Source: Acholeplasma sp. | GTDB lineage: Bacteria > Bacillota_I > Bacilli_A > Acholeplasmatales > UBA5453 | Assembly (NCBI GenBank): GCA_036677365.1 | Contig: JAVBWN010000001.1 | Span: 1-64,000 of the forward strand | Length of the DNA: 64,000 nt | Reading direction: 5' to 3' | Part shown: positions 22,390-57,504 of the stretch, piece after piece | How the letters are laid out: every line of letters begins with the position of its first letter | Position numbering within the stretch: position 1 is the first letter of the stretch | The notes under the pieces: model-generated | Databases searched by the model: none | The model's input: the letters and a program-made list of their open reading frames with translations, nothing else | Told to the model about the DNA's origin: nothing | Program-made: the position numbers and the translations under genes

Positions 22390-22419
22390 AAAATTCCCCA
22401 GTTTTTGGGGAATTTTTTT
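22390..22419. terminator. Bidirectional terminator between sufB and the S66 gene
   Basis: AAAATTCCCC...GGGGAATTTTTT. Confidence 0.75.
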
Positions 22420-23434
22420 ACTTTCGTAGGGTTTGAATGGTGCCTTTACCATCTTTCGATTTAATTTCAACGTACGCCCCACTAATCAGTGTGAATGTTG
22501 GCGGTGTATGGCCAAAATCAGCATCCATGATGATGGGGACATTCAAGTCACCTAAGATATCCAAGGTGGTTTGGTATTGGTCTAGGTCTATGACTGGTGA
22601 AGCATTCAAATGTCTACCAAAAATAAAGCCTTTGGTGTATTTGAACCAACCAGCCAGTTTGAGTTGCCACAAAGCCCTTTTTAAACCAAATAAGTTTAAG
22701 TCACAGGCTTCCATGAACCAAATGATGCCATCATCCTTATACTTTTCAATGAATGTATGGACTTGATCCAATGGGGTGCCTAAGTGGGATAAAAACACAT
22801 CGATGCATCCGCCAATCAATCGTCCTGATAGATGGATTTCACTTTCATTTCTTAAATTTACCCAGCGTGTGGGTTCATTCAATATATAGCCACCCAGTGG
22901 GTCATTTTGTTCTGTGCCTTTACCTTCATACATGGGAAAACTATGTTGAATATGTCTTTGACCGGTTATGATTTCTAAAGCTTGTTTTAATGATTCATCC
23001 CAAGATTTCATTCCGAATTCTGTGGTGTGTTGACCGTAAATGGCTGCGGTATCTAGTAAAGTATTCATTAACATCGTCAAATGGGTATTGTCAGAATACC
23101 CCATAACGTATTTTGGTGGGTATTTTTTTAACGCTTCAAAATCGATGTAAGGCAGCATTTCCATCAACCATTCGCCACCACCCACACTCCATAATAAATC
23201 GACTTTTGGATTTTTGTATAAAGACTCAAAAGCTTTTGCCCTGGCTTCTTTAGGAGCACTCGCACCTTGATAATAGCCAAAAATATCGCCTTCACTGACG
23301 ATGTTATAGCCCAACGATTTCAATTGTGATATTGCAGATTCCAATCTGGATTTATAGGGTTCGGTGTTCGCACCAAAACTGCTCGCAAACAAACCAATTG
23401 TGCCATTAGGCTTAAGATAATTAGGGTATTTCAT
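22418..23434 (-). CDS. S66 family peptidase (LD-carboxypeptidase/MccF-like)
   Basis: GYSDNT, GRLIGGC, FMEAC, DFGHT (Ser-Glu-His triad). Confidence 0.9.
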   Translation of the reverse strand: MKYPNYLKPNGTIGLFASSFGANTEPYKSRLESAISQLKSLGYNIVSEGDIFGYYQGASAPKEARAKAFESLYKNPKVDLLWSVGGGEWLMEMLPYIDFEALKKYPPKYVMGYSDNTHLTMLMNTLLDTAAIYGQHTTEFGMKSWDESLKQALEIITGQRHIQHSFPMYEGKGTEQNDPLGGYILNEPTRWVNLRNESEIHLSGRLIGGCIDVFLSHLGTPLDQVHTFIEKYKDDGIIWFMEACDLNLFGLKRALWQLKLAGWFKYTKGFIFGRHLNASPVIDLDQYQTTLDILGDLNVPIIMDADFGHTPPTFTLISGAYVEIKSKDGKGTIQTLRK

Positions 23435-25859: not shown

Positions 25860-26276
25860 ATGCTATATATCCAACAACACCCGAGGGGTTCTGCCCTTGT
25901 TTTTGAAAAATACACCACACAATCGGAAAAACCGCCGATTAGTATAATTAAACTTTTGTGTCAGGAATTACTGATGACTTATGAATCCAGAATTCTCTTG
26001 ACTAAGAAACGTTTTAAGATCCACGCCATGGTCCCAATCTACATCAACCCAACGATATTATTGATGCCAACCGGTAGTCCAAGAAGTTATGAAACGATTT
26101 GGATCAACTACCTTAAAATCGCGTCAATTCAGAAATATGGCGATCATACCGTCGTCCTTTTTACCAATCTTACTGAGATAGAGGTCCATATCTCTTACAC
26201 GCGGTTCAAAGAAAAAATGAAATATTGTAAAATAATCTATGATTATATGGAGAACCATCAATCCTTGATTTTATAA
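25860..26276 (+). CDS. ComK-family protein
   Basis: PISIIKLLC...YESR...VPIYI...PTGSP...WINY pattern of the ComK family. Confidence 0.7.
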   Translation: MLYIQQHPRGSALVFEKYTTQSEKPPISIIKLLCQELLMTYESRILLTKKRFKIHAMVPIYINPTILLMPTGSPRSYETIWINYLKIASIQKYGDHTVVLFTNLTEIEVHISYTRFKEKMKYCKIIYDYMENHQSLIL

Positions 26277-37228: not shown

Positions 37229-37324
37229 ATCAAACACCTCGTGTTAATTATAACATATTTACAAATTATCGTGCTTGTTTTGACAAAAAAACCAAAAAAA
37301 CGTATAGTATTTATGGGTGATGTT

Positions 37325-37720
37325 ATGGACCGTATGGCCATTATATTTAAAGCATATGAAGTCGCAGACGAAATTAAATCCACACAAGCGTTTAAAGACT
37401 TGGTCTACTATGGCCAGTACATGCAAACCCAGTTGAAAAATGAAGTGGAAGCCTATCAAAAGGCGATGGCTAAATTCAATGAAGTTCAAAGTCAAGGTGG
37501 GTCTTACCACCCCGATTTTAAGCAAATCATTTTAGCCTTGGGGATTGCGAAAAGGGCTTTGTATGAAAACGAGGCTGTGAAAAAATACTTAGCGGCGGAA
37601 AAAATCATTCAACAAACATTGGATGATTTATCGAGAGATTTGGGTCAAACCATCTCTTCGCACGTTAAAGTACCGAATGAACTGGGTTTATTTAAGGAGA
37701 ATAGTTGTCATGTTGGTTAA
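37325..37720 (+). CDS. ylbF: YlbF/YmcA family regulator
   Basis: Helical protein, YHPDF, ISSHVKVP..., C-terminal Cys; adjacent to ylbG. Confidence 0.75.
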   Translation: MDRMAIIFKAYEVADEIKSTQAFKDLVYYGQYMQTQLKNEVEAYQKAMAKFNEVQSQGGSYHPDFKQIILALGIAKRALYENEAVKKYLAAEKIIQQTLDDLSRDLGQTISSHVKVPNELGLFKENSCHVG

Positions 37721-38589: not shown

Positions 38590-39519
38590 CTATTTTTCAG
38601 GATGATATAAAGTGTAGCTGCCTTTACCTTTGGCTTTGGATTGATACATGGTTTTATCGCCTAAGTTTAGTAAGTTGTGATAACCCTTGTTTTCTTCTGT
38701 GATTTGTACAATCCCAATCGAAACACTGATGCCAACTGTTTTCGCAACCTCAGTCAGATTTTCAATATCTCGGATGATTTTTTCTGCTCGTGCTTTGATT
38801 TGTTCTAAAGTATGGTCATAACAATACATGAAGAATTCATCCCCACCCAACCGGTAGTATAAAACATTGTGTTCCCATGTACCAATGAAATAGTGGGCAA
38901 TGTCAATCAGCAATTGGTCACCAGCCTGGTGTCCAAATTGGTCATTCACATACTTGAAGTCATCAATATCGAGGTACATGACATAGGAATTTTGGGTGGA
39001 AGTTAAGTGATTCATATGTAATTTGAGCGTTTCTCTAGAAAACAACTTCGTTAATGGGTCTTGATAGGTTTTTTGATAGTGGATGATTTCAATCGGTGTT
39101 TGTTCATAAATCCTCACCACTTGTGCAAACACGATGTGTTTTTGTTTTACATGGTGTCTTGTAAATGACATATAAAGCCATAAGGGTTCTAGCTGTCTTT
39201 TCACAGGGATATATAAATACAATTCCTGATCAAAGGTGTTGAACTTGTTTCGAATGTTTTGAATGAAACTGTGTCTACCCTCAACCTCAGCGAGTAAATT
39301 GTTCTCATCGACATAAGCAAACAGATTGTTGACAGGGAAATAGGTCCATTCTGGCAGAGATACACTCGATAATTGACCAGAAGTCACACGACACATCAAA
39401 GGCTTTTCATCGATATCGATCACGAAAGACACACGTCTATTTGAAGAAAACGCAATCTCGTTATAAAAATCGATGTTGTATTCGGTTTTCAGCCAATCTA
39501 CGACTTTTGGATCAACCAT
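38590..39519 (-). CDS. Diguanylate cyclase (GGDEF domain)
   Basis: DPLTKL, LDIDDFKYVNDQFGHQAGD, RLGGDEF, SIG, MYQSK. Confidence 0.92.
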   Translation of the reverse strand: MVDPKVVDWLKTEYNIDFYNEIAFSSNRRVSFVIDIDEKPLMCRVTSGQLSSVSLPEWTYFPVNNLFAYVDENNLLAEVEGRHSFIQNIRNKFNTFDQELYLYIPVKRQLEPLWLYMSFTRHHVKQKHIVFAQVVRIYEQTPIEIIHYQKTYQDPLTKLFSRETLKLHMNHLTSTQNSYVMYLDIDDFKYVNDQFGHQAGDQLLIDIAHYFIGTWEHNVLYYRLGGDEFFMYCYDHTLEQIKARAEKIIRDIENLTEVAKTVGISVSIGIVQITEENKGYHNLLNLGDKTMYQSKAKGKGSYTLYHPEK

Positions 39520-39716
39520 GTTGAAATCCCCCCACATTTACCAAATTCATCATATCATATGCGAAACCGATTACAATACCAAAATCATAAAATCCATCCA
39601 ATCGACCATCAAAAGGGGATTGGAACCGTTTTCATTTTTCGTGCCATCGAGAAAATGCCCACGTTCATCCCGGTTTTGATATGATTTTTTTGTGATATAA
39701 TAGAACAGGTGATATT

Positions 39717-41572: not shown

Positions 41573-42568
41573 ATGAGCGTAAAAGTAACGATTTATGAAG
41601 TAGCCTTAGCGGCAAGAGTCTCATTAGCAACCGTTTCAAGAGTATTAAACAACCCTGAAAAAGTTAAACCAGACACGAGAGAACGCGTCTTAAAAGTCAT
41701 TAAAGAACTCGGCTATCGCCCAAATGCGATCGCTAGAGGTTTGGCGAGCCGTAAAACCACCACTGTGGGTGTTTTGGTCTCTGATATCACGAGAGCTTCT
41801 GTTGCTGAAATGCTTGGGGGTATCTCCGACATCGCGATGAAGTATAGCTATTCAATCAAACTATTCTCTGCCCATGAAGATGTCAACATCATCGAACTCA
41901 TCAACGACATCGTGGCTGAACAAGTCGATGGCGTGTTGATCTTAAACGATGAGCTCGACGCATCTAGAATGAAGAAAGTCAAAGAATTATTTGACGAAAA
42001 CGAAATCCCATTCGTTTTAGCGAACGTGGTCAATGAGGATAGATCTGTACCAAGCGTATCCATCGATTATGAAAAAGCAGGGTATGAAATCACCAAATTG
42101 ATGATTGAAATGGGTAAAAAAGACATTTACATGCTTTCTACCGTGAGAAAATATTCCGTCAACGATAAGAAAGAATTGGGCTACACCAGAGCAATGCAAG
42201 AAGCACACTTAATGCCACGCGTGTTCAGAACCTCCGGGACGACATCTGTTAACCGTCAACATTTCGCAAACTTCTTCGCCGATAAGATCATCGATGGTGC
42301 CATTGGTGTCCGTGACTCGATTGCCGTATCTTTCATGAATATTGCGAATGAATCTGGCCGTTCTGTCCCTGAAATGGTATCTGTCGCAGGCTTCCAAAAT
42401 ACGAAGTATGCGCTTTTATCCCGCCCAACCTTGACATCGATTGATATCCCAGTGTATGATATCGGTGCAGTAGCCATGAGACTATTAACCAAACTCATGA
42501 ATAAAGAACAACTCGATTCACTTCAAGTTGTATTACCTCACTACATTGTGAGAAGAGAATCATTATAG
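41573..42568 (+). CDS. ccpA: Catabolite control protein A (LacI family)
   Basis: TIYEVA...VSLATVSRV, YRPNAIARGLASRKTTTVGV, YDIGAVAMRLLTKLMNKE typical of CcpA. Confidence 0.88.
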   Translation: MSVKVTIYEVALAARVSLATVSRVLNNPEKVKPDTRERVLKVIKELGYRPNAIARGLASRKTTTVGVLVSDITRASVAEMLGGISDIAMKYSYSIKLFSAHEDVNIIELINDIVAEQVDGVLILNDELDASRMKKVKELFDENEIPFVLANVVNEDRSVPSVSIDYEKAGYEITKLMIEMGKKDIYMLSTVRKYSVNDKKELGYTRAMQEAHLMPRVFRTSGTTSVNRQHFANFFADKIIDGAIGVRDSIAVSFMNIANESGRSVPEMVSVAGFQNTKYALLSRPTLTSIDIPVYDIGAVAMRLLTKLMNKEQLDSLQVVLPHYIVRRESL

Positions 42569-42574
42569 GGTCGT

Positions 42575-42772
42575 TGAAAAAAACACAGTAAGCTTAAACT
42601 TTAGAACATAGAGACTTTGTGTTAGGTGAAAACAAAGCTGGGTTTAAACTGAATTACACTTTTGGAGATCCAACAATTAAAAAGAGTGCTATGGGCAACC
42701 ATAGAACTAAGGTGGTACCACGATTGTTATAGTCGTCCTTAGATTGATTTTTAAGGACGGCTTTTTATTTTA
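42575..42772 (+). promoter_or_regulatory. T-box riboswitch (Tyr)
   Basis: AGTA box, AGAGA/GGTGAAA, specifier TAC in GAATTACAC, T-box AAGGTGGTACCACG (42709-42722), terminator. Confidence 0.93.
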
Positions 42773-44037: not shown

Positions 44038-44874
44038 ATGGACATCATTCTTTATAACCCATTATCACGTAACGGTAAGAGTCAAGGAATTGTGGATGAA
44101 CTGGTATTGAAACTCGAATCTGAAGGTAAAGTAGTGGCTGTTCACAGCATCCTTGAAATCCCCTCGGTGGCGAATTTCATCCAAGGGGTTCAAAAAGAAG
44201 ACCGTGTCATCATTTTAGGTGGTGACGGCACACTCCACCATTTGGTCAATTCGATTCGTGGGTATGACATCACCCAACCAATCTATGTATTAAAAGCCGG
44301 TACGGGTAATGACTTCATTCGAAGCATCCCATCGAAAGACCACTTGATACAAATCAATGACTACATCCAAGACTTACCTAAAGTGACCGTGAATGGGGAA
44401 GAATCCTTATTCTTAAATGGGACTGGGATTGGTGTCGATGCCTATGTGTGTCACTTAGTCAACACTTCAACCAAAAAGAAATCTGCTGCCAATTATTTCA
44501 AAAATGCCCTCAAAGCATTCTTAACTTATAAACCATCGGAGGCCACCGTCACGATTGATGGGGTTACCAAATCCTACAAAAAGGTTTGGTTCATCCTCGC
44601 AGCGAACTCGGTTTACATGGGTGGCGGTATGAAGTTCTCACCAAGTTCTGTTCGTGGCGATGATTTGTTGGAATTTTTGATCATTCATCGTGTACCCAGA
44701 TTCATTTTATTCCTCATTTTCCCAACCATCTATTTTGGAAAACACGTATGGTTCAAACGCTGGGTGACCATCATCCAAGGGAAAACCATGGATGTGCATT
44801 ATGGCAAAGTCTCCTTTCTTCAAAAGGATGGCGAATCGGTCAATCATGTCCAATCCATGCACATCGAAAGATAA
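44038..44874 (+). CDS. Diacylglycerol/lipid kinase family protein
   Basis: YNPLS, GGDGT, GTGNDF, GIGVDA, YMGGG, DGE. Confidence 0.9.
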   Translation: MDIILYNPLSRNGKSQGIVDELVLKLESEGKVVAVHSILEIPSVANFIQGVQKEDRVIILGGDGTLHHLVNSIRGYDITQPIYVLKAGTGNDFIRSIPSKDHLIQINDYIQDLPKVTVNGEESLFLNGTGIGVDAYVCHLVNTSTKKKSAANYFKNALKAFLTYKPSEATVTIDGVTKSYKKVWFILAANSVYMGGGMKFSPSSVRGDDLLEFLIIHRVPRFILFLIFPTIYFGKHVWFKRWVTIIQGKTMDVHYGKVSFLQKDGESVNHVQSMHIER

Positions 44875-44877
44875 TTC

Positions 44878-44919
44878 AAAGACGCTTAGTTCAATATAGA
44901 ACTTGAAGGCGTCTTTTTT
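44878..44919 (+). terminator. Intrinsic terminator after tyrS and the lipid kinase gene
   Basis: AAAGACGCTT...AAGGCGTCTTTTTT. Confidence 0.75.
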
Positions 44920-44967
44920 CTTTACCATATTTATGGTACGATATAAACATCTTACACGGTGAACAAA

Positions 44968-47900
44968 ATGAAGACACTCAGTCAGCTACAACTGAATATG
45001 CTACATGCTTCCAAACAGTATGATCACTATCCGATCCAAATCGGGTGTTTTTTAGATTTATCTCACCTTGAAATCAACCCAGATAAGATTGAATCCTATT
45101 TTCATCACATAGACGAATTACATCAAACCATTATCTTATTGGATCATGTACCCTATTGGATCAACATTGATCAAAAACCCAAACTCTTATCAATTCATCA
45201 AAGAGATACCCAAGCGTTTTTCGAAGCACCATTTGAGTTGAATTCACCTTTCTATCGAATCGCCATAGAAAGTGAAACCAACCGTCTTCTGTTCGTAGCG
45301 AACCATATATTACTCGATGGCACATCGATTCAGTATTTGATGAAGTCGCTGTATCTTCATTTACAAGATTTACCGAATGGGGGATTTTCAAAAGCTAAAG
45401 AAACACAGCCCATACAACCGGAGGCGCAAGCCTTTTTTGAAGAAAAAATTAGACAAACGCCACCTACGTTCATCAAACCTTATCATCATTTTTCAGGGGT
45501 ACAACCAGCCAAAAGGAAACATGTGGTACTAAAGAAAAATTTCTTAAGTGACGATGTATCATCATTTTCATTATCCACTTTGATAGAAGCTGCCATCGTG
45601 CTATATTTATCCTACCTATATCCAAAACAACCTGTCCGTTACGGGATGGTTTTAAGCCAAAGACAATCGTCTGAAAAAACAGCTTTAGGGATGTTTTCAC
45701 AAGTGTATCCAATGCATGTCAATATCACGGAAAACCCTACCATAGAGACATTTTTAAAACACATTGAACTTACACATCGTCAAGTCTTAAGAAGAAGATT
45801 TGTCGATTTTGAAGCATTGTTGGCTTGTTCCAAAGCCCATCACCAAACAACCCAATTGTTTGATTTCACAATCATCAATCAAAGTAGACATTATGATGAA
45901 CACATTCCGATTGAACCCTTGTTTTACCCCTATATAGATCAGTCTTTGGTTATCAATATACTTGAGGGGGACGATACCCATCTCTACCTAGATTATCAAA
46001 CCGGTATATATACGGAACCGATGATTGACCGATTGATTAAGAGACTTAAATACATCATCGTTCAATTGAGTAAACTCAACAATGTGTCTGATGTCTCTGT
46101 GTTGTTTGATGAAGAATTGCCCATGATTTTACCTAAAGTAGAGAAAAAACTCATGGATTTGTATCATCAAAACTTAGATTCACATCTAGAAGATATCGCC
46201 ATCATCGACGATCAAGCCATCACTTATCAAAAGCTAGAAACGGATTCAAACCGTTTGAGTCACGCATTGGTAAACATCCAAGTAGATACCATTGTCATCG
46301 ATGGTCATAAGACATATCGATCCATATTGACAATGCTTTCAGCCATCAAGGCAGGAAAACCATTTGTTTTTTATACATCAGAAACCAACACCTTTTTGAA
46401 TCCACCAATCAATATCGACAATTTAGATTGGCAGCACCAATCACCCTTATACATCGATTATCCTAAAAATCCGATTCTGGCGTATTATTTCACTTCGGGT
46501 ACTCAAGGTAGAAAACAAATCGCCACTACAAGAGATGCACTTTACAATCATTTGACTGGGGCACCTTATATCAGAGAAGCGAAAGATTTAAAACGGATAC
46601 CTTTATTATCAGCACTTCATTTCGATATGAGTTTGGAAGAAATCTGGGTTGCATTACTGCACAAAATCACCTTGGTATTGTTCGATGAAGAGACGTTCAA
46701 ACAACCATCCAAAAGGCTAAACCGTTTTGATCTTTACCCTGTGGACGGAATCACAACCACCCCTTCAATGATTAAAATCTTAATGGATGACCCTAAACTC
46801 ATGTCGACTTTGAAATGGCTGGTTTTAGGGGGTGAAACCTTGACACCTGGATTGGTTAAAAGCATCCTCGCTTATCCTAACATCCAGTTATACAATAGCT
46901 ATGGTCCAACCGAAACCACCATCGCTGTCACATCCACTCAGATAACATCCAGTGCGTCTATTTCCATCGGTAAAGCCCATTCAAACACCCAAGTAATGAT
47001 TTTCAATGAGAAGCCATTGCCATGGGGAGATATCGGCGAAATCTATGTTCAAGGTATGAATGTCAGTCCATCGGTAAAGACGGTGATGTATCAAGACAAA
47101 CCATTTTACCCAACGGGTGACCTAGGTTATCAAGATGAACATGGGGTTATCTATTTTATCGGTCGAGGTGACCGAACCATTAAACGCCACGGGGTCAGAA
47201 TCGATTTGAACTGGATGGATCAAAAAATCCAACAACACCCATCGGTCATTCAAGTTTGTTCGGTGTTTAACCAAAATCAAATCATCAGCTATGTTCAAAC
47301 CAATCCAAAAGCAGATGAAGACATCGTGAGACAGTACATCTTCAATACACTTTCCCCGCAACATAGACCCAATCGAGTGGTGTTCACACAAAACATCACC
47401 AAAGAAGGCAAAATCGAAACACGGGATAATGTGAAACAAACCCCGTTTAAACCAAACAACCTAAAAGAAAAAGCGATTTTTCACGCTTTATCGATTGTAT
47501 TAAATCATTCAAAATTTAGTCTGGAAGATGGGATTGTTACCCATGGTGGAGACTCACTCTCAGTCATCCAAATCTTATCCATCTTAGACCAATATGGGTA
47601 TGCATTGGATACGGAACATTTAGAAACCAAAACAATAGCGGATATTATCCGCGATACACAAAAACGAAACATATCTTATAAACAATTGAAAAAGCACCCA
47701 AAGGGTCTACCGATTGCAATGGGTAATTGCATATGTCTTTATGGTGGAAATGGATTTTTAGGCATCCATTTATTGGATACTTTTATAGAACAAACCGATG
47801 CCAAAGTGATATTACCATTACGTGTTTCAAAAGCAGTACTTGAAGAGACTTATGCGTACTATATAAAGAAAAAACTAGACACCAGTCGAGTTCAAGTCAT

Positions 47901-48600
47901 ACCTTTTGATGCTACGATAGATCACTTAAATATCGATACCATCATCAACGCTACAGGGTATACGAAGTATCAAGGCAAGCCTGAAATCTATGATTACATC
48001 AATGTCGATTTCGTATTAGATCTTGCAAATAAAGCGAAAGATTTAGACATCTCTTTAGTTCATATATCCACCTTAGGTATTGGTGCTTATGAACGGGTAT
48101 TTGATGAAGCACGCAGACGCATTCGAATGACTTTTAGTAACCCTTATTTAACGTCTAAAGCCAAGGCAGAAGTGGCGTTAAGTGAAATCGAAGGCTTGAA
48201 TTACAAACTCATTCGTGTGGGTAATCTGACGCCTAGTCTTAACCAAATGGTACCACAAATAGGTAACGATAATGCTTTTATGAAGGGATTATCCAATTTA
48301 GTACACCATCACAATTCAAACTTATATGGCATTCATTTTGATATCACCCCAGTAGATATCGCTTCAAACGCAATCGTTATGTTTTTAAAATCAACCATGA
48401 CCATTGGACATGTGGTTCATCCGAATAGATATCACTATGATGGTGATACAAAAGGTATGGCAATAGATGAAACCAAGCCAGTGATTCGAAGCGAAAAAAC
48501 TCAACAAGTCTTAAAGAAATTAGGGTTTAGATACGCAAAATTAGATACCGATTATTTAAAAGCCATGGGTGAGATTGCTGAAAAAAACAGGGACGTGTAA
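44968..48600 (+). CDS. Single-module NRPS: condensation-adenylation-PCP-thioester reductase
   Basis: C: NHILLDG. A: FTSGTQG, FDMS, GGE, YNSYGPTETT, YPTGDLG, GRGDRTIKRHGVRID, GK. T: GGDSL. R: GGNGFLG, YLTSK. Confidence 0.88.
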   Translation: MKTLSQLQLNMLHASKQYDHYPIQIGCFLDLSHLEINPDKIESYFHHIDELHQTIILLDHVPYWINIDQKPKLLSIHQRDTQAFFEAPFELNSPFYRIAIESETNRLLFVANHILLDGTSIQYLMKSLYLHLQDLPNGGFSKAKETQPIQPEAQAFFEEKIRQTPPTFIKPYHHFSGVQPAKRKHVVLKKNFLSDDVSSFSLSTLIEAAIVLYLSYLYPKQPVRYGMVLSQRQSSEKTALGMFSQVYPMHVNITENPTIETFLKHIELTHRQVLRRRFVDFEALLACSKAHHQTTQLFDFTIINQSRHYDEHIPIEPLFYPYIDQSLVINILEGDDTHLYLDYQTGIYTEPMIDRLIKRLKYIIVQLSKLNNVSDVSVLFDEELPMILPKVEKKLMDLYHQNLDSHLEDIAIIDDQAITYQKLETDSNRLSHALVNIQVDTIVIDGHKTYRSILTMLSAIKAGKPFVFYTSETNTFLNPPINIDNLDWQHQSPLYIDYPKNPILAYYFTSGTQGRKQIATTRDALYNHLTGAPYIREAKDLKRIPLLSALHFDMSLEEIWVALLHKITLVLFDEETFKQPSKRLNRFDLYPVDGITTTPSMIKILMDDPKLMSTLKWLVLGGETLTPGLVKSILAYPNIQLYNSYGPTETTIAVTSTQITSSASISIGKAHSNTQVMIFNEKPLPWGDIGEIYVQGMNVSPSVKTVMYQDKPFYPTGDLGYQDEHGVIYFIGRGDRTIKRHGVRIDLNWMDQKIQQHPSVIQVCSVFNQNQIISYVQTNPKADEDIVRQYIFNTLSPQHRPNRVVFTQNITKEGKIETRDNVKQTPFKPNNLKEKAIFHALSIVLNHSKFSLEDGIVTHGGDSLSVIQILSILDQYGYALDTEHLETKTIADIIRDTQKRNISYKQLKKHPKGLPIAMGNCICLYGGNGFLGIHLLDTFIEQTDAKVILPLRVSKAVLEETYAYYIKKKLDTSRVQVIPFDATIDHLNIDTIINATGYTKYQGKPEIYDYINVDFVLDLANKAKDLDISLVHISTLGIGAYERVFDEARRRIRMTFSNPYLTSKAKAEVALSEIEGLNYKLIRVGNLTPSLNQMVPQIGNDNAFMKGLSNLVHHHNSNLYGIHFDITPVDIASNAIVMFLKSTMTIGHVVHPNRYHYDGDTKGMAIDETKPVIRSEKTQQVLKKLGFRYAKLDTDYLKAMGEIAEKNRDV

Positions 48601-48612
48601 ATGTCCCTGTTG
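48585..48612. terminator. Terminator between the convergent NRPS and trpS genes
   Basis: AACAGGGAC...GTCCCTGTT. Confidence 0.7.
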
Positions 48613-49629: not shown

Positions 49630-49830
49630 AATAAAACGCCCTTAGAAAAATATCTAAGGACGACAATGTCGCGGTACCACCTTAGTTCTATGGAAAACCA
49701 TAGCCCTCGAATGTCTTTATAGCCGACCTGCTCATACTCTGTAGGCCCATTCATTTATGTATCCTTTGAAGGCTCTCACTGTCCCTCCTCGCTTGTAAAG
49801 TCATCGATAAATTACTATTCTACGTCTTCG
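49630..49830 (-). promoter_or_regulatory. T-box riboswitch (Trp)
   Basis: Minus-strand specifier TGG in GAATGG, T-box AAGGTGGTACCGCG (49683-49670), terminator before the RBS. Confidence 0.92.
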
Positions 49831-49956: not shown

Positions 49957-49970
49957 TCAACTTGTTGATA

Positions 49971-50113
49971 TCTCCGAATCCACAGAGTGGGGGACCCATC
50001 CATTTCAGGGGTGAATGGCATCATTTAGATACCTAAGGATACTTAATGTCCTGAATCCGTCAGCTAACCTCATAGGAGTGATTAAGCGTATAAATCATTT
50101 ATGCGTTTTTTTT
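49971..50113 (+). promoter_or_regulatory. c-di-AMP (ydaO/yuaA) riboswitch with terminator
   Basis: CCGAATCC...GGGGGACC...GGGGTGAAT...CCTGAATCCGTCAGCTAACCTCATAGG; terminator 50084-50113. Confidence 0.92.
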
Positions 50114-51922: not shown

Positions 51923-54478
51923 TTATTTTCTTATCGTGTCCATCGGATGATGAAGGAAATAAGAATATGTTGGAATTAGAGTTGTTACAAAAAAAATGAT
52001 GATGTTTAAAATAACTAAAATGAATGCGAGATTCCAGTTAAATATGAATAATATGAATCTGAAATCATAGTATTTATACAGAAAGTAATTAACGGATTTA
52101 AAAGTGAGTATGATTGCTAATAAAGATACAATGTATGAAATAACACATATAAACCCACTTTGCACAGCAAAAATCTTTAATATATCAGCAAATGAACTAC
52201 CTAACGACCTAAGTATACCTATGTTTTTGCGCATAATCACAATATTGTTTGTAATATATTGATAGAATAAGAAAAAACTAATCAAGAGCACAACAATACT
52301 CACCAAAAATCCTATCATGGACAAACTCTGAAGTTGGTTATTGAAATGAGCATTTGTTTGGTATATTGGATTCAATATAACAAGAGAATCTGTAGTACTT
52401 AAGGCTGTTAATTGATTATGGCTATCCACTTTAATTAATGCACCTACATAATATTGAATATCGTATTTTAATACCATCTCATTGTAAAAATCATCAGAGA
52501 ACACAATACCATTACTTAAATTTAACGTACTATCATCGTAAAATCCATATAATGAAAATTCTCTGAAACCAAAGATTAAATCAGAAACGCTGACTTTGAT
52601 GGTTGAAATCAAATTATAGTTGTTATTTATAAAGTTTTTGATAGCTTCAATGCGGAAATAATTGTAATCATAACCTGGATGATATGCATTATCAGCGTGG
52701 GTCATTATGTATGTTTTATAAGTTCCGCTTTCGTTGTTTTCAAAATCAGTTTGGATAGATGGGTAGTTTAAGTCGACAAAATTATCAATCAAAACATTCA
52801 AATCATGAACAATCATGTCACCATATGTATTATGCATTTCTATCATCGAAAAAGGTAGTAAAATTTCATTATCGTTTAAATCTCTGTCATTGGATGAAAT
52901 TATCTGTACATCAGATTGTGATAGATATGATTTTTGAAGCATTAGATAAGATTGAAACATTGTTAAATCAGATTTAAAACCCAAATTCATTGTTTGTGGA
53001 AGTCTGTTTTGTTTCACAGTATCTTTCAAAAACACATTATTAAAATAAGATGGACTAAAAAAAGTAATTTGATGTACTTCACTCATAATGACAGATTGAA
53101 GTTCAATCGATAATTGTAAGGTTTCAATATTGTTTTGATTTAAATCTACCTCAGTATAACGAGATGATACAAACCCAGTATCAACAATGCCGACAACAGT
53201 AAAATATGAATCTGATATTTCGAATGCCAATCCTAATAAATCTGAATTCGAACTAATGATGACAGGGTTTTGATTCAGATCCAAAAATGGGTTTTTCTTA
53301 AGAATGTCATATACATGTGCTGTTATTGCAATTTCATCATCATTTTGAGGCAATCTTCCAGCACTTAACTTCCAACCTAAATTGATTAAATCCTCTTGAT
53401 TAATAGAAATTGAACTATTAGATTCATGAATGAATGTATTGTCCTCTGGTGGATTGATAAATCTATAATTTGGTGAAAAATGATTAAAAATAGGGATAGG
53501 ATTACCTGGTAAAGCAATGATTTCATCATACGAACTCGTTCGATAAGGTAATAGACTATCGTCTGAATTCACAAATTTACCAACGACAATAGAGTCATTG
53601 TATGCTCTCATTGCTTGATAAGCATTTGAATCCAATTCGTAGTTTGCAATAGAAAAAGGTAGACCAAAGAGGATTAATGATAATGTCGACATTAAAAGTG
53701 TAATTACTAATTTCATCTTTAACTTATTTATTTGTCTTAATCCTAGGATAGAGACAAATTTGAGAGAAAGTTTACCCTTTTTCATGGTTAAATTATCCAA
53801 AGAATTATGTTCATGTGTAATTGTGTTTCGAATTACCTTACCACCTTCAAGCTCAACAATGTGATCATTAAATTGACGAATTGCATCCATATCATGAGAA
53901 GCAACCACAAACAGTCTGTCTTTGGACAACCGCTTTATTAATTTCCAGACCATTAAACTCGACTCTGAATCTAACGCACCAGTTGGTTCATCAGCAAGAA
54001 CTATGGGTGCGTTTTTTATCAAGGCACGTGCGATAGCAACTCTTTGCATTTGTCCACCCGATAGTGTTTTTGAAAGACGTGTTTCAAAACCTTCCAGGTC
54101 AACAAGGGATAAAATCTCAGATATTTTTCTTGAATCTTCTGGTTGACCTGATAAAATCATTGCTATGGATAAATTATCATAAACAGTGATATCATCAATG
54201 AGGTTATAATCTTGAAATACTAAACTAACTTGAGAACTTCTATACAAATTTTGATCATATTTTGATAATGATGTAACTGAAATGTTCTCATAATCAATAT
54301 TGCCAGAATCTGGTTTATCAATACCGGCGAGCAGGTGTATCAGTGTTGATTTCCCACTGCCCGATTTTCCATAAATGCACACCAGACCTGTTTTTGGAAA
54401 TGATAAACACATATCATTAATTGCTGTGATTGTTTCATTGCCTTGTAAGTATTTTTTTGTTAAGTGTTTTATTATCAT
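51923..54478 (-). CDS. MacB/FtsX-like fused ABC ATPase-permease
   Basis: GKSGSGKS, LSGGQMQR, DEPTGALD; GRLP motif in the extracellular domain; IGILRSLG in the FtsX part. Confidence 0.88.
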   Translation of the reverse strand: MIIKHLTKKYLQGNETITAINDMCLSFPKTGLVCIYGKSGSGKSTLIHLLAGIDKPDSGNIDYENISVTSLSKYDQNLYRSSQVSLVFQDYNLIDDITVYDNLSIAMILSGQPEDSRKISEILSLVDLEGFETRLSKTLSGGQMQRVAIARALIKNAPIVLADEPTGALDSESSLMVWKLIKRLSKDRLFVVASHDMDAIRQFNDHIVELEGGKVIRNTITHEHNSLDNLTMKKGKLSLKFVSILGLRQINKLKMKLVITLLMSTLSLILFGLPFSIANYELDSNAYQAMRAYNDSIVVGKFVNSDDSLLPYRTSSYDEIIALPGNPIPIFNHFSPNYRFINPPEDNTFIHESNSSISINQEDLINLGWKLSAGRLPQNDDEIAITAHVYDILKKNPFLDLNQNPVIISSNSDLLGLAFEISDSYFTVVGIVDTGFVSSRYTEVDLNQNNIETLQLSIELQSVIMSEVHQITFFSPSYFNNVFLKDTVKQNRLPQTMNLGFKSDLTMFQSYLMLQKSYLSQSDVQIISSNDRDLNDNEILLPFSMIEMHNTYGDMIVHDLNVLIDNFVDLNYPSIQTDFENNESGTYKTYIMTHADNAYHPGYDYNYFRIEAIKNFINNNYNLISTIKVSVSDLIFGFREFSLYGFYDDSTLNLSNGIVFSDDFYNEMVLKYDIQYYVGALIKVDSHNQLTALSTTDSLVILNPIYQTNAHFNNQLQSLSMIGFLVSIVVLLISFFLFYQYITNNIVIMRKNIGILRSLGSSFADILKIFAVQSGFICVISYIVSLLAIILTFKSVNYFLYKYYDFRFILFIFNWNLAFILVILNIIIFFVTTLIPTYSYFLHHPMDTIRK

Positions 54479-57377: not shown

Positions 57378-57402
57378 GTGGTTGGTATCGTCATCCAATA
57401 CT

Positions 57403-57474
57403 ATGTCAATCGCAAACCTAGAGCAATCTAGTGACGCAAAGCTATAGGGTCTTTATGAGACAGCCAGTTGCCAT
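57403..57474 (+). ncRNA. c-di-GMP-I (GEMM) riboswitch aptamer, variant with C at position 20
   Basis: CGCAAACCTAGAGCAATCTAGTGACGCAAAGCTATAGGGTCT...GACAGCCAGTTGCC: P2 with a GCAA tetraloop, GACGCAAAG junction and P3. Confidence 0.88.
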
Positions 57475-57504
57475 TTCAGAAGCATTTGTGTGGTAACTTC
57501 ATTT

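Follow-up and report, generated by a model that had tools for sequence, protein, structure and literature searches.

ScoA and MmaA, DudA and MxcG are nonribosomal peptide synthetases (NRPSs) that acylate lysine, and they are among the closest described systems to the gene analysed here, an NRPS gene at positions 44968–48600 on the forward strand of a 64,000-nucleotide stretch of Acholeplasma sp. DNA (the window; contig JAVBWN010000001.1, assembly GCA_036677365.1). For ScoA/MmaA, ATP-PPi exchange showed activation of L-Lys, and the single condensation (C) domain acylates both Lys amines from donors bound to an acyl carrier protein (ACP) before a 4-electron release (10.1101/121228). In a second report, the starter C domain of DudA puts host-supplied (hydroxy) fatty acids on Lys in a single-gene system, and one module of MxcG is cited as acylating both Lys amines (PMC7696016).

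The window NRPS resembles ScoA and MmaA in being a single NRPS with one C domain and a thioester reductase (R) domain for release, and it would share Lys and acyl-ACP donors with them under the function proposed below. It is ~200 residues shorter and has Thr or Ser instead of Asp at position 278 of the adenylation (A) domain; its surroundings also differ, in that ScoA works with a thioesterase, an oxidase, an acyl-ACP ligase and an ACP of its own, all encoded beside it (10.1101/121228), and the window gene has none of these. MxcG, the myxochelin synthetase, has the same C-A-T-R order (T, thiolation or carrier domain) with a terminal reductase, but its acyl donor is 2,3-dihydroxybenzoyl held on an aryl carrier protein, and no such genes were found in the window genome (G000). 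Because the NCBIfam MxcG model reached 98.6 bits against a cut-off of 2300, the window NRPS is no MxcG equivalog. DudA, the dudomycin synthetase (C-A-PCP-TE, where PCP is a peptidyl carrier protein and TE a thioesterase), is likewise a stand-alone single module that requires no further cluster gene (PMC7696016), but it is a Streptomyces enzyme of canonical size with hydrolytic TE release. The A-T-R end of AusA, of the aureusimine or dipeptide-aldehyde type, is the best NCBIfam match of the window protein (1.1e-52), but the AusA model gave 178 bits against a cut-off of 2500, and AusA-type and C-A-T-C-A-T-R enzymes differ further in that they comprise two modules, score at canonical levels in Pfam (C 6.7e-80, A 7.7e-138) and come with a phosphopantetheinyl transferase (PPTase) of Sfp size. 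Identity to any NRPS outside its own family is 24% or less. The chemistry is known; compaction, absent partner genes and a genomic background with an AcpS-type PPTase only make this NRPS a variant. Judging by its sequence, we lean towards a working single-module lipoinitiation enzyme.

Architecture, compactness and distribution

The gene is one intact open reading frame (ORF) of 1210 aa plus a stop codon (48598–48600) under translation table 11, and table 4 (TGA = Trp) leaves it unchanged. GTG 44959 and ATG 44968 are alternative starts; the 1210-aa length was adopted because homologues begin at a Met matching ATG 44968. The G+C content is even, at 0.38–0.40, in the gene and in those beside it. 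The order condensation, AMP-binding, carrier and thioester reductase emerged from Pfam, NCBIfam and PDB sequence searches, in agreement with a first-pass annotation made from the letters alone, which had described a stand-alone C-A-T-R enzyme in about 1210 aa. The features are as follows (pLDDT, predicted local distance difference test).

44968..48600, + strand: NRPS coding sequence (ORF, homologue starts, Pfam/NCBIfam/PDB, model pLDDT 81.4, Foldseek)
44968..46122, + strand: condensation domain, predicted starter type, aa 1–385 (Pfam, H113/D117, model, tree)
46135..47457, + strand: adenylation domain, aa 390–830, pocket D-M-E-T-V-G-S-I-A-K (Pfam, NCBIfam, invariant residues)
47461..47682, + strand: thiolation (carrier) domain, aa 832–905, S863 in GGDS, acidic helix II (PP-binding 20.9 bits)
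47719..48597, + strand: thioester reductase domain, aa 918–1210, GGNGFLG, R952, S1034/T1035, Y1060 and K1064 (NAD_binding_4)

Pfam scores were low for an NRPS. The Condensation match covered aa 203–373 (4e-14), AMP-binding scored 7.5e-32 and NAD_binding_4 2.4e-10; PP-binding reached 16.3 bits in the protein scan, under its 20.8 cut-off, and 20.9 bits in the genome scan, and AMP-binding_C was undetected by Pfam. The R domain also matched TIGR01746 (6.7e-12, below cut-off), the AusA R region (1.2e-15) and PDB entries 6vtj and 4f6l. PDB sequence matches of the whole protein included LgrA, SrfA-C, EntF and the AusA R domain. An AlphaFold model of residues 1–1200 had a mean pLDDT of 81.4 and returned LgrA (1.3e-53), SrfA-C (6.2e-53), AB3403 and EntF in Foldseek, while an ESM Atlas search gave generic NRPS-reductase clusters only.

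All catalytic motifs named in the first-pass annotation could be read again in the translated ORF and across the aligned family. The C domain carries NHILLDG with H113 and D117, the first His of HHxxxDG being Asn in the window protein. In the A domain we read A3 as YFTSGTQGRK, A4 as FDMS, A5 as NSYGPTE, A7 as YPTGD, A8 as GRGDRTIKRHGVRID and A10 as EGK with K815, the Lys517 equivalent, while D553 corresponds to Asp235; with these motifs intact, the A domain does not look like the inactive one that the earlier annotation had allowed for. The carrier motif is GGDS with the phosphopantetheine serine S863, and the R domain has GGNGFLG and YLTSK, the latter with Y1060 and K1064.

The marked shortness noted in the first pass held up in every domain: the protein is ~200 aa (about 15%) shorter than canonical C-A-T-R modules. 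Column-wise deletion mapping by multiple alignment found just 37 columns, and motif spacings were used instead, taken from 14 members of the family and from 55 canonical modules (106 were tried, and 51 failed a motif match). From the C start to A3 the family has 508 residues against 608 in canonical modules, ~100 fewer, a loss that includes 28 residues between A2 and A3 (48 against 76). Spacings were also reduced from A5 to A8 (87 against 104, 17 fewer), from A8 to A10 (81 against 88, 7 fewer) and from A10 to the carrier serine (49 against 57, 8 fewer). Two canonical R domains from the same order span 359 and 360 residues from the Rossmann motif to the end, where the family has 285, ~75 fewer. 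The shortening is therefore distributed over all domains.

Of 8000 candidates scored in a word-index search, 36 had E <= 0.001, and ten of these are full-length relatives of 1197–1214 aa with 44–96% identity; the next match in that search was an ordinary NRPS at 24%. The aligned family has 15 members with 26–96% identity to the window protein. Named members come from Paracholeplasma vituli, Haploplasma axanthum and metagenome-assembled genomes labelled Acholeplasma or Acholeplasmataceae, where they are annotated merely as 'AMP-binding protein'; the mollicute-like host proposed earlier is Acholeplasma-like. Acholeplasma-like bacteria often turn up in samples of sludge, sediment and wastewater. 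The window genome comprises 1.97 Mb in 37 contigs and is 99.86% complete. Among 301 genomes of the order, 22 have an NRPS-like match at E <= 1e-20, and eight hold a full-length family member (G000, G040, G014, G022, G072, G057, G031 and G052; that of G014 is split over two contig ends). The other 14 match just via the A-T-R part of much larger synthetases, of which two, both canonical, were inspected: a 2405-aa C-A-T-C-A-T-R enzyme and a 2950-aa synthetase ending in R. The earlier view that NRPSs are unexpected in these lineages was accordingly overstated. Both large synthetases belong to another genus of the order (L038 2446–9660, − strand; L039 166–9015, + strand) and lie next to a gene of MatE/HATPase type or one for a SpoIIE-type phosphatase. 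At class level, eight of 401 genomes gave a match at E <= 1e-30, and none of the 401 contains a full-length family member outside the order. On these searches the family is confined to Acholeplasma-like genomes and lineage-specific. A C-domain profile search of 1.84 billion proteins ranked its results by summed mega-synthetase scores and yielded no nearest single relative; its proteins were reused locally. Our literature search found no paper on an Acholeplasma NRPS, and neither sequence nor literature searches found a characterised homologue, whose existence would have overturned the first-pass proposal.

Predicted acylation, substrate and release

In the function that we favour, the A domain would adenylate a basic alpha-amino acid, most likely Lys and possibly Orn, and load it onto the T domain. 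The starter-type C domain would then acylate the tethered amino acid from a donor of primary metabolism, most likely the acyl-ACP of fatty-acid synthesis, or else acyl-CoA. This domain may acylate both amino groups, as ScoA/MmaA, DudA and MxcG are taken to do, before the R domain frees an N-acyl amino aldehyde or alcohol using NAD(P)H. Dedicated partner genes would be unneeded, with priming by the housekeeping AcpS-type PPTase. The most likely product would be an N-acyl, perhaps di-acyl, amino aldehyde or alcohol of Lys/Orn type made from primary-metabolism acyl donors. The first-pass annotation had likewise predicted the product, as an amino-lipid or a protease-inhibiting aldehyde. We infer the substrate, donor, number of acylations, depth of reduction and priming enzyme of this scheme.

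A first-pass proposal of a starter C domain was supported by the tree. The C domain begins at residue 1. A family C-domain profile run over 186 proteins retrieved 837 near-full-length C-type domains; N-terminal C domains scored a median of 86.6 bits against 69.7 for others and made up 17 of the 30 best-scoring domains against 92 of 821 overall. We then built a tree of 279 C domains, with 14 from the family, all 92 N-terminal ones and 173 internal ones (170 sampled from 729, plus three added); P0002 and P0051 were omitted as near-duplicates. The family was monophyletic and fell in a 45-tip split (support 0.993) with 30 N-terminal domains and one internal domain, N-terminal position serving as a proxy for starter type. 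The family C domain fits the starter type on this sequence comparison. Modelled alone, it gave a complete two-lobed C fold (pLDDT 84.6, predicted template modelling score 0.84), with VIA Z values of 31.8 to ObiF1, 30.3 to CDA-C1, 29.9 to LgrA and 28.2 to the RzmA starter C domain. CDA-C1 and RzmA are in the top seven structural matches, at Z values within about 3 of ordinary C domains.

The same domain bears on a different account, which we think unlikely: the C domain would be non-acylating, with a structural or assisting part, and the enzyme would behave as an A-T-R amino-acid reductase whose free amino aldehyde, once released, cyclises or dimerises and so yields a product of the cyclic imine or pyrazine type. 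The best NCBIfam match being the A-T-R part of AusA fits this account, as does the lack of any acyl-activating or carrier gene beside the NRPS in four genomic contexts. Pfam misses the N-terminal half of the C domain, and NCBIfam misses all of it, a run on the C domain alone giving noise only. Against a non-acylating C domain, H113, D117 and 19 further C-domain positions are invariant over 21–78% identity, and the ratio of nonsynonymous to synonymous substitution rates (dN/dS) of the domain is 0.16, on par with the other domains. The complete modelled fold and the clustering with N-terminal C domains speak the same way.

Re-reading the A-domain pocket from motif anchors and the 1amu alignment range gave D553-M554-E557-T596-V619-G621-S644-I652-A653-K815, identical to the first-pass reading. 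The pocket is near-invariant in the family: V619, G621, I652 and A653 never vary, all but one of the 15 members retain S644, position 236 varies among M, L and I, and position 278 alternates between T and S. An acidic residue at A-domain position 239 suggests a basic side chain in the substrate, and Glu557, which occupies this position, is invariant. The V-G-S-I core resembles Lys/Orn codes. Six of the ten positions (D, E, V, G, S, K) match DIEDVGSVVK, the code given for ScoA/MmaA in 10.1101/121228, and seven do in distant members with Ile at position 236. The weak first-pass hint of Lys or Orn agrees with these six positions; position 278, with Thr or Ser in place of Asp, does not match.

The four differing positions, together with the absence of Asp278, make the substrate call weak and are among the grounds for a further account, to which we give little credence: the same chemistry would act on an amino acid that is not basic or not proteinogenic, giving an N-acyl amino aldehyde that would be secreted and inhibit proteases, as peptide aldehydes from other anaerobes do. 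The proteins cited for the favoured function support an acylation and reduction scheme under this account too, and other genomes of the order carry C-A-T-C-A-T-R synthetases that end in a reductase. The invariant Glu557 and the Lys/Orn-like core speak for a basic substrate instead, and no exporter or immunity gene adjoins the NRPS.

Carrier priming and selection

A PPTase gene, for which the first-pass annotation had proposed a genome search, is present, but it is of the AcpS type only, which that annotation did not foresee. The single PF01648 match in G000 is a 118-aa AcpS-type protein, and the PF01648 search found no Sfp-type PPTase (about 200–230 aa) there. As this is the sole PPTase gene, the NRPS in G000 could be primed by the housekeeping AcpS alone. 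G040, G014, G022 and G072 are also AcpS-only, G057 has both types, and G031 and G052 have an Sfp-size PPTase only. Genomes with canonical large NRPSs have an Sfp-size PPTase, on the same contig as the synthetase in three of five. G000 encodes one ACP and one FabF-like ketosynthase, and we found in it no second C domain and no clear acyl-AMP/CoA ligase or second adenylating enzyme.

Helix II of the T domain is acidic in the window protein and has no Lys or Arg. Its net charge is −2 or lower in 14 of 15 family members, a value reached by 1.9% of 680 canonical T domains (median +2); helix II of the ACP of G000 itself has a charge of −6. An acidic, ACP-like helix II would be compatible with AcpS priming. 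This opens a more specific proposal, which we hold only tentatively and regard as improbable in full: the family would be a lineage-specific, natively AcpS-dependent route without cluster partners, with an ACP-like helix II suited to AcpS priming, from the acyl-ACP of fatty-acid synthesis to a reduced Lys/Orn-type aminolipid such as N,N'-diacyl-lysinol, which would serve wall-less bacteria as a lipid of the membrane or the cell surface.

The catalytic residues H113, D117, D553, E557, K815 and S863 are invariant in all 15 members, as are the Rossmann glycines G926, G929 and G932, the NADPH arginine R952, S1034/T1035, Y1060 and K1064. Comparing the gene with its 80%-identical counterpart in G040 (NG86 method), we obtained a dN/dS of 0.165 overall and 0.16, 0.19, 0.075 and 0.16 for the C, A, T and R domains; more distant pairs were saturated at synonymous sites. 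The relaxed selection that the earlier annotation proposed to look for was thus not seen, and the gene is, on these ratios, under purifying selection. In related strains from other samples, the whole 6.8-kb stretch was present with 187 substitutions and no indel, and nine of the 16 in-gene strain differences listed are synonymous (193 further differences over the stretch lie outside that listing). Two RNA libraries contained five short contigs and one short contig inside the gene, a weak hint of transcription since DNA carry-over is possible.

These data also bear on an apo enzyme or functionless relic, an old NRPS that cannot be primed without an Sfp-type PPTase and is heading to loss, which we judge very unlikely. 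The five AcpS-only genomes would agree with it, as would the patchy spread within the genus, with clean junctions in NRPS-less relatives, and a protein that diverges to 53–56% identity where its flanks keep 95%. A relic, however, sits poorly with intact ORFs and a full set of catalytic residues in 15 members, at identities as low as 26%, with a dN/dS that is low in each domain and with strains free of indels. The gene has also retained its own terminator, promoter-like region and ribosome-binding site (RBS), and the RNA contigs count slightly on the same side, within the limit just given. In the comparison of G000 with G014 (L004 / L024), dS was ~2.0–2.4 for the NRPS and 0.9–1.1 for dagK and trpS; allele exchange or weaker codon constraint could account for this divergence.

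Several further observations weigh against a working lipoinitiation enzyme primed by AcpS. AcpS-type enzymes generally prime peptidyl carriers poorly. The acidic helix II is a family trait that extends beyond AcpS-only genomes: G031 and G052 have a charge of −4, yet an Sfp-size PPTase only. Our inventory of fatty-acid synthesis covered FabF, ACP and AcpS. The dN/dS of the NRPS is ~5x that of its neighbour genes (dagK 0.024, trpS 0.037, G000 vs G040). Structure fails to split starter from elongation C domains, ObiF1 and the LgrA C domain scoring equally well, and the tree relies on the N-terminal proxy, on proteins chosen by search and on a sample of 170 of the 729 internal domains. The pocket differences described above count here as well. 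A family member is found in four of ten genomes of the genus and is missing from the other six, so the gene is dispensable. Overall, the first-pass observation is confirmed and its interpretation partly supported, and we continue to favour a working lipoinitiation NRPS.

Genomic setting and implications

The immediate neighbours are tyrS, a DAGK/YegS-like kinase gene (dagK-like) and trpS, and no tailoring gene, PPTase or exporter adjoins the NRPS gene, as the first-pass annotation had reported. The gene lies between dagK-like and a convergent trpS in four genomes of the genus, and these two genes abut in three genus mates without the NRPS. In a further genus mate, G025, the dagK–trpS gap holds a 140-aa ORF without a Pfam match (L029 1056–1478, − strand). 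Distant homologues adjoin recA and dps, a DEAD-box helicase gene, or genes for a surface protein and an FtsX permease. Donor-supplying genes (carrier protein, ligase) were found beside the NRPS neither in the window nor in three other contexts. Three flanking signals were recognised.

44878..44916, + strand: intrinsic terminator, hairpin plus T-run, 3' of the dagK-like gene (fold, conservation)
44921..44962, + strand: promoter-like stretch and RBS, by eye (TTTACC 44921–44926, TATAAA 44942–44947, GGTGA 44958–44962)
48586..48611, both directions: two-way terminator hairpin common to the NRPS gene (+) and convergent trpS (−) (scan, both strands)

The fold of 44872–44930 had −16.6 kcal/mol (z −5.3), which none of 200 shuffles equalled; G040 retains the hairpin, as does G014, where both arms carry changes. 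The promoter-like stretch is conserved in G040 and partly in G014. A consensus promoter scan did not list 44921–44947, and a promoter of the gene's own near these positions is our inference only. Four contexts without partner genes, together with the flanking signals, indicate that the NRPS gene is an accessory, self-contained unit. A functional link to dagK-like, tyrS or trpS was rejected: mates without the NRPS keep tyrS, dagK and trpS adjacent (gaps 33–180 bp) and distant homologues lie elsewhere, so adjacency to dagK-like and trpS is incidental. Co-regulation by the tyrS T-box was likewise rejected because the conserved terminator separates dagK from the NRPS. That T-box leader and its terminator precede tyrS at 42565–42743 (+; Rfam 95.8 bits). 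A very similar terminator-like hairpin is found upstream of trpS at 49637–49662 (−), where no T-box reached the gathering score.

A fused ABC-ATPase/FtsX permease gene at 51923–54478 (−) lies in a stretch of low G+C, 0.299 against about 0.39. It was rejected as an exporter for the NRPS, since no orthologue with more than 32% identity exists in the five genus mates G040, G014, G022, G009 and G018; it looks strain-specific and was possibly acquired. The FtsX gene that adjoins the G072 homologue is unrelated to it. Past the window end, a BioF/KBL-family alpha-oxoamine synthase gene (G000 C1 64407–65489) follows a Zn-dependent alcohol-dehydrogenase-family gene that itself extends beyond the window; the two are probably a tdh-kbl pair. 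Sphingolipids with amide-linked hydroxy fatty acids are reported from Acholeplasma axanthum, but a literature search gave nothing of use on them, and no link to the NRPS was established.

Other features of the window concern regulation and cell biology. A c-di-AMP riboswitch at 49962–50093 (+) extends over position 50015, where a Na+/H+-exchanger-family gene is listed to begin; the true start of this gene is therefore probably further downstream, and a P-II-like gene comes next. A c-di-GMP-I riboswitch at 57401–57475 (+), with no + strand ORF of at least 100 aa before 59476, and a GGDEF-domain gene at 38590–39537 (−) point to cyclic-di-GMP signalling in a mollicute-like genome. The window also encodes an LD-carboxypeptidase (peptidase S66) homologue at 22418–23434 (−), in a lineage regarded as wall-less, and homologues of the competence regulators ComK and YlbF/YmcA at 25860–26276 (+) and 37241–37720 (+).

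The prediction is directly testable, since homologues exist in cultured Paracholeplasma vituli and Haploplasma axanthum. An inactive enzyme would be one more orphan NRPS. If active, it would be a minimal self-contained NRPS, encoded by one gene, that draws on primary metabolism and relies on a housekeeping PPTase for priming. It would offer an attractive engineering scaffold and a natural case in which to see how much NRPS domains can lose. Its product would then be the first specialised metabolite of Acholeplasma-like bacteria.

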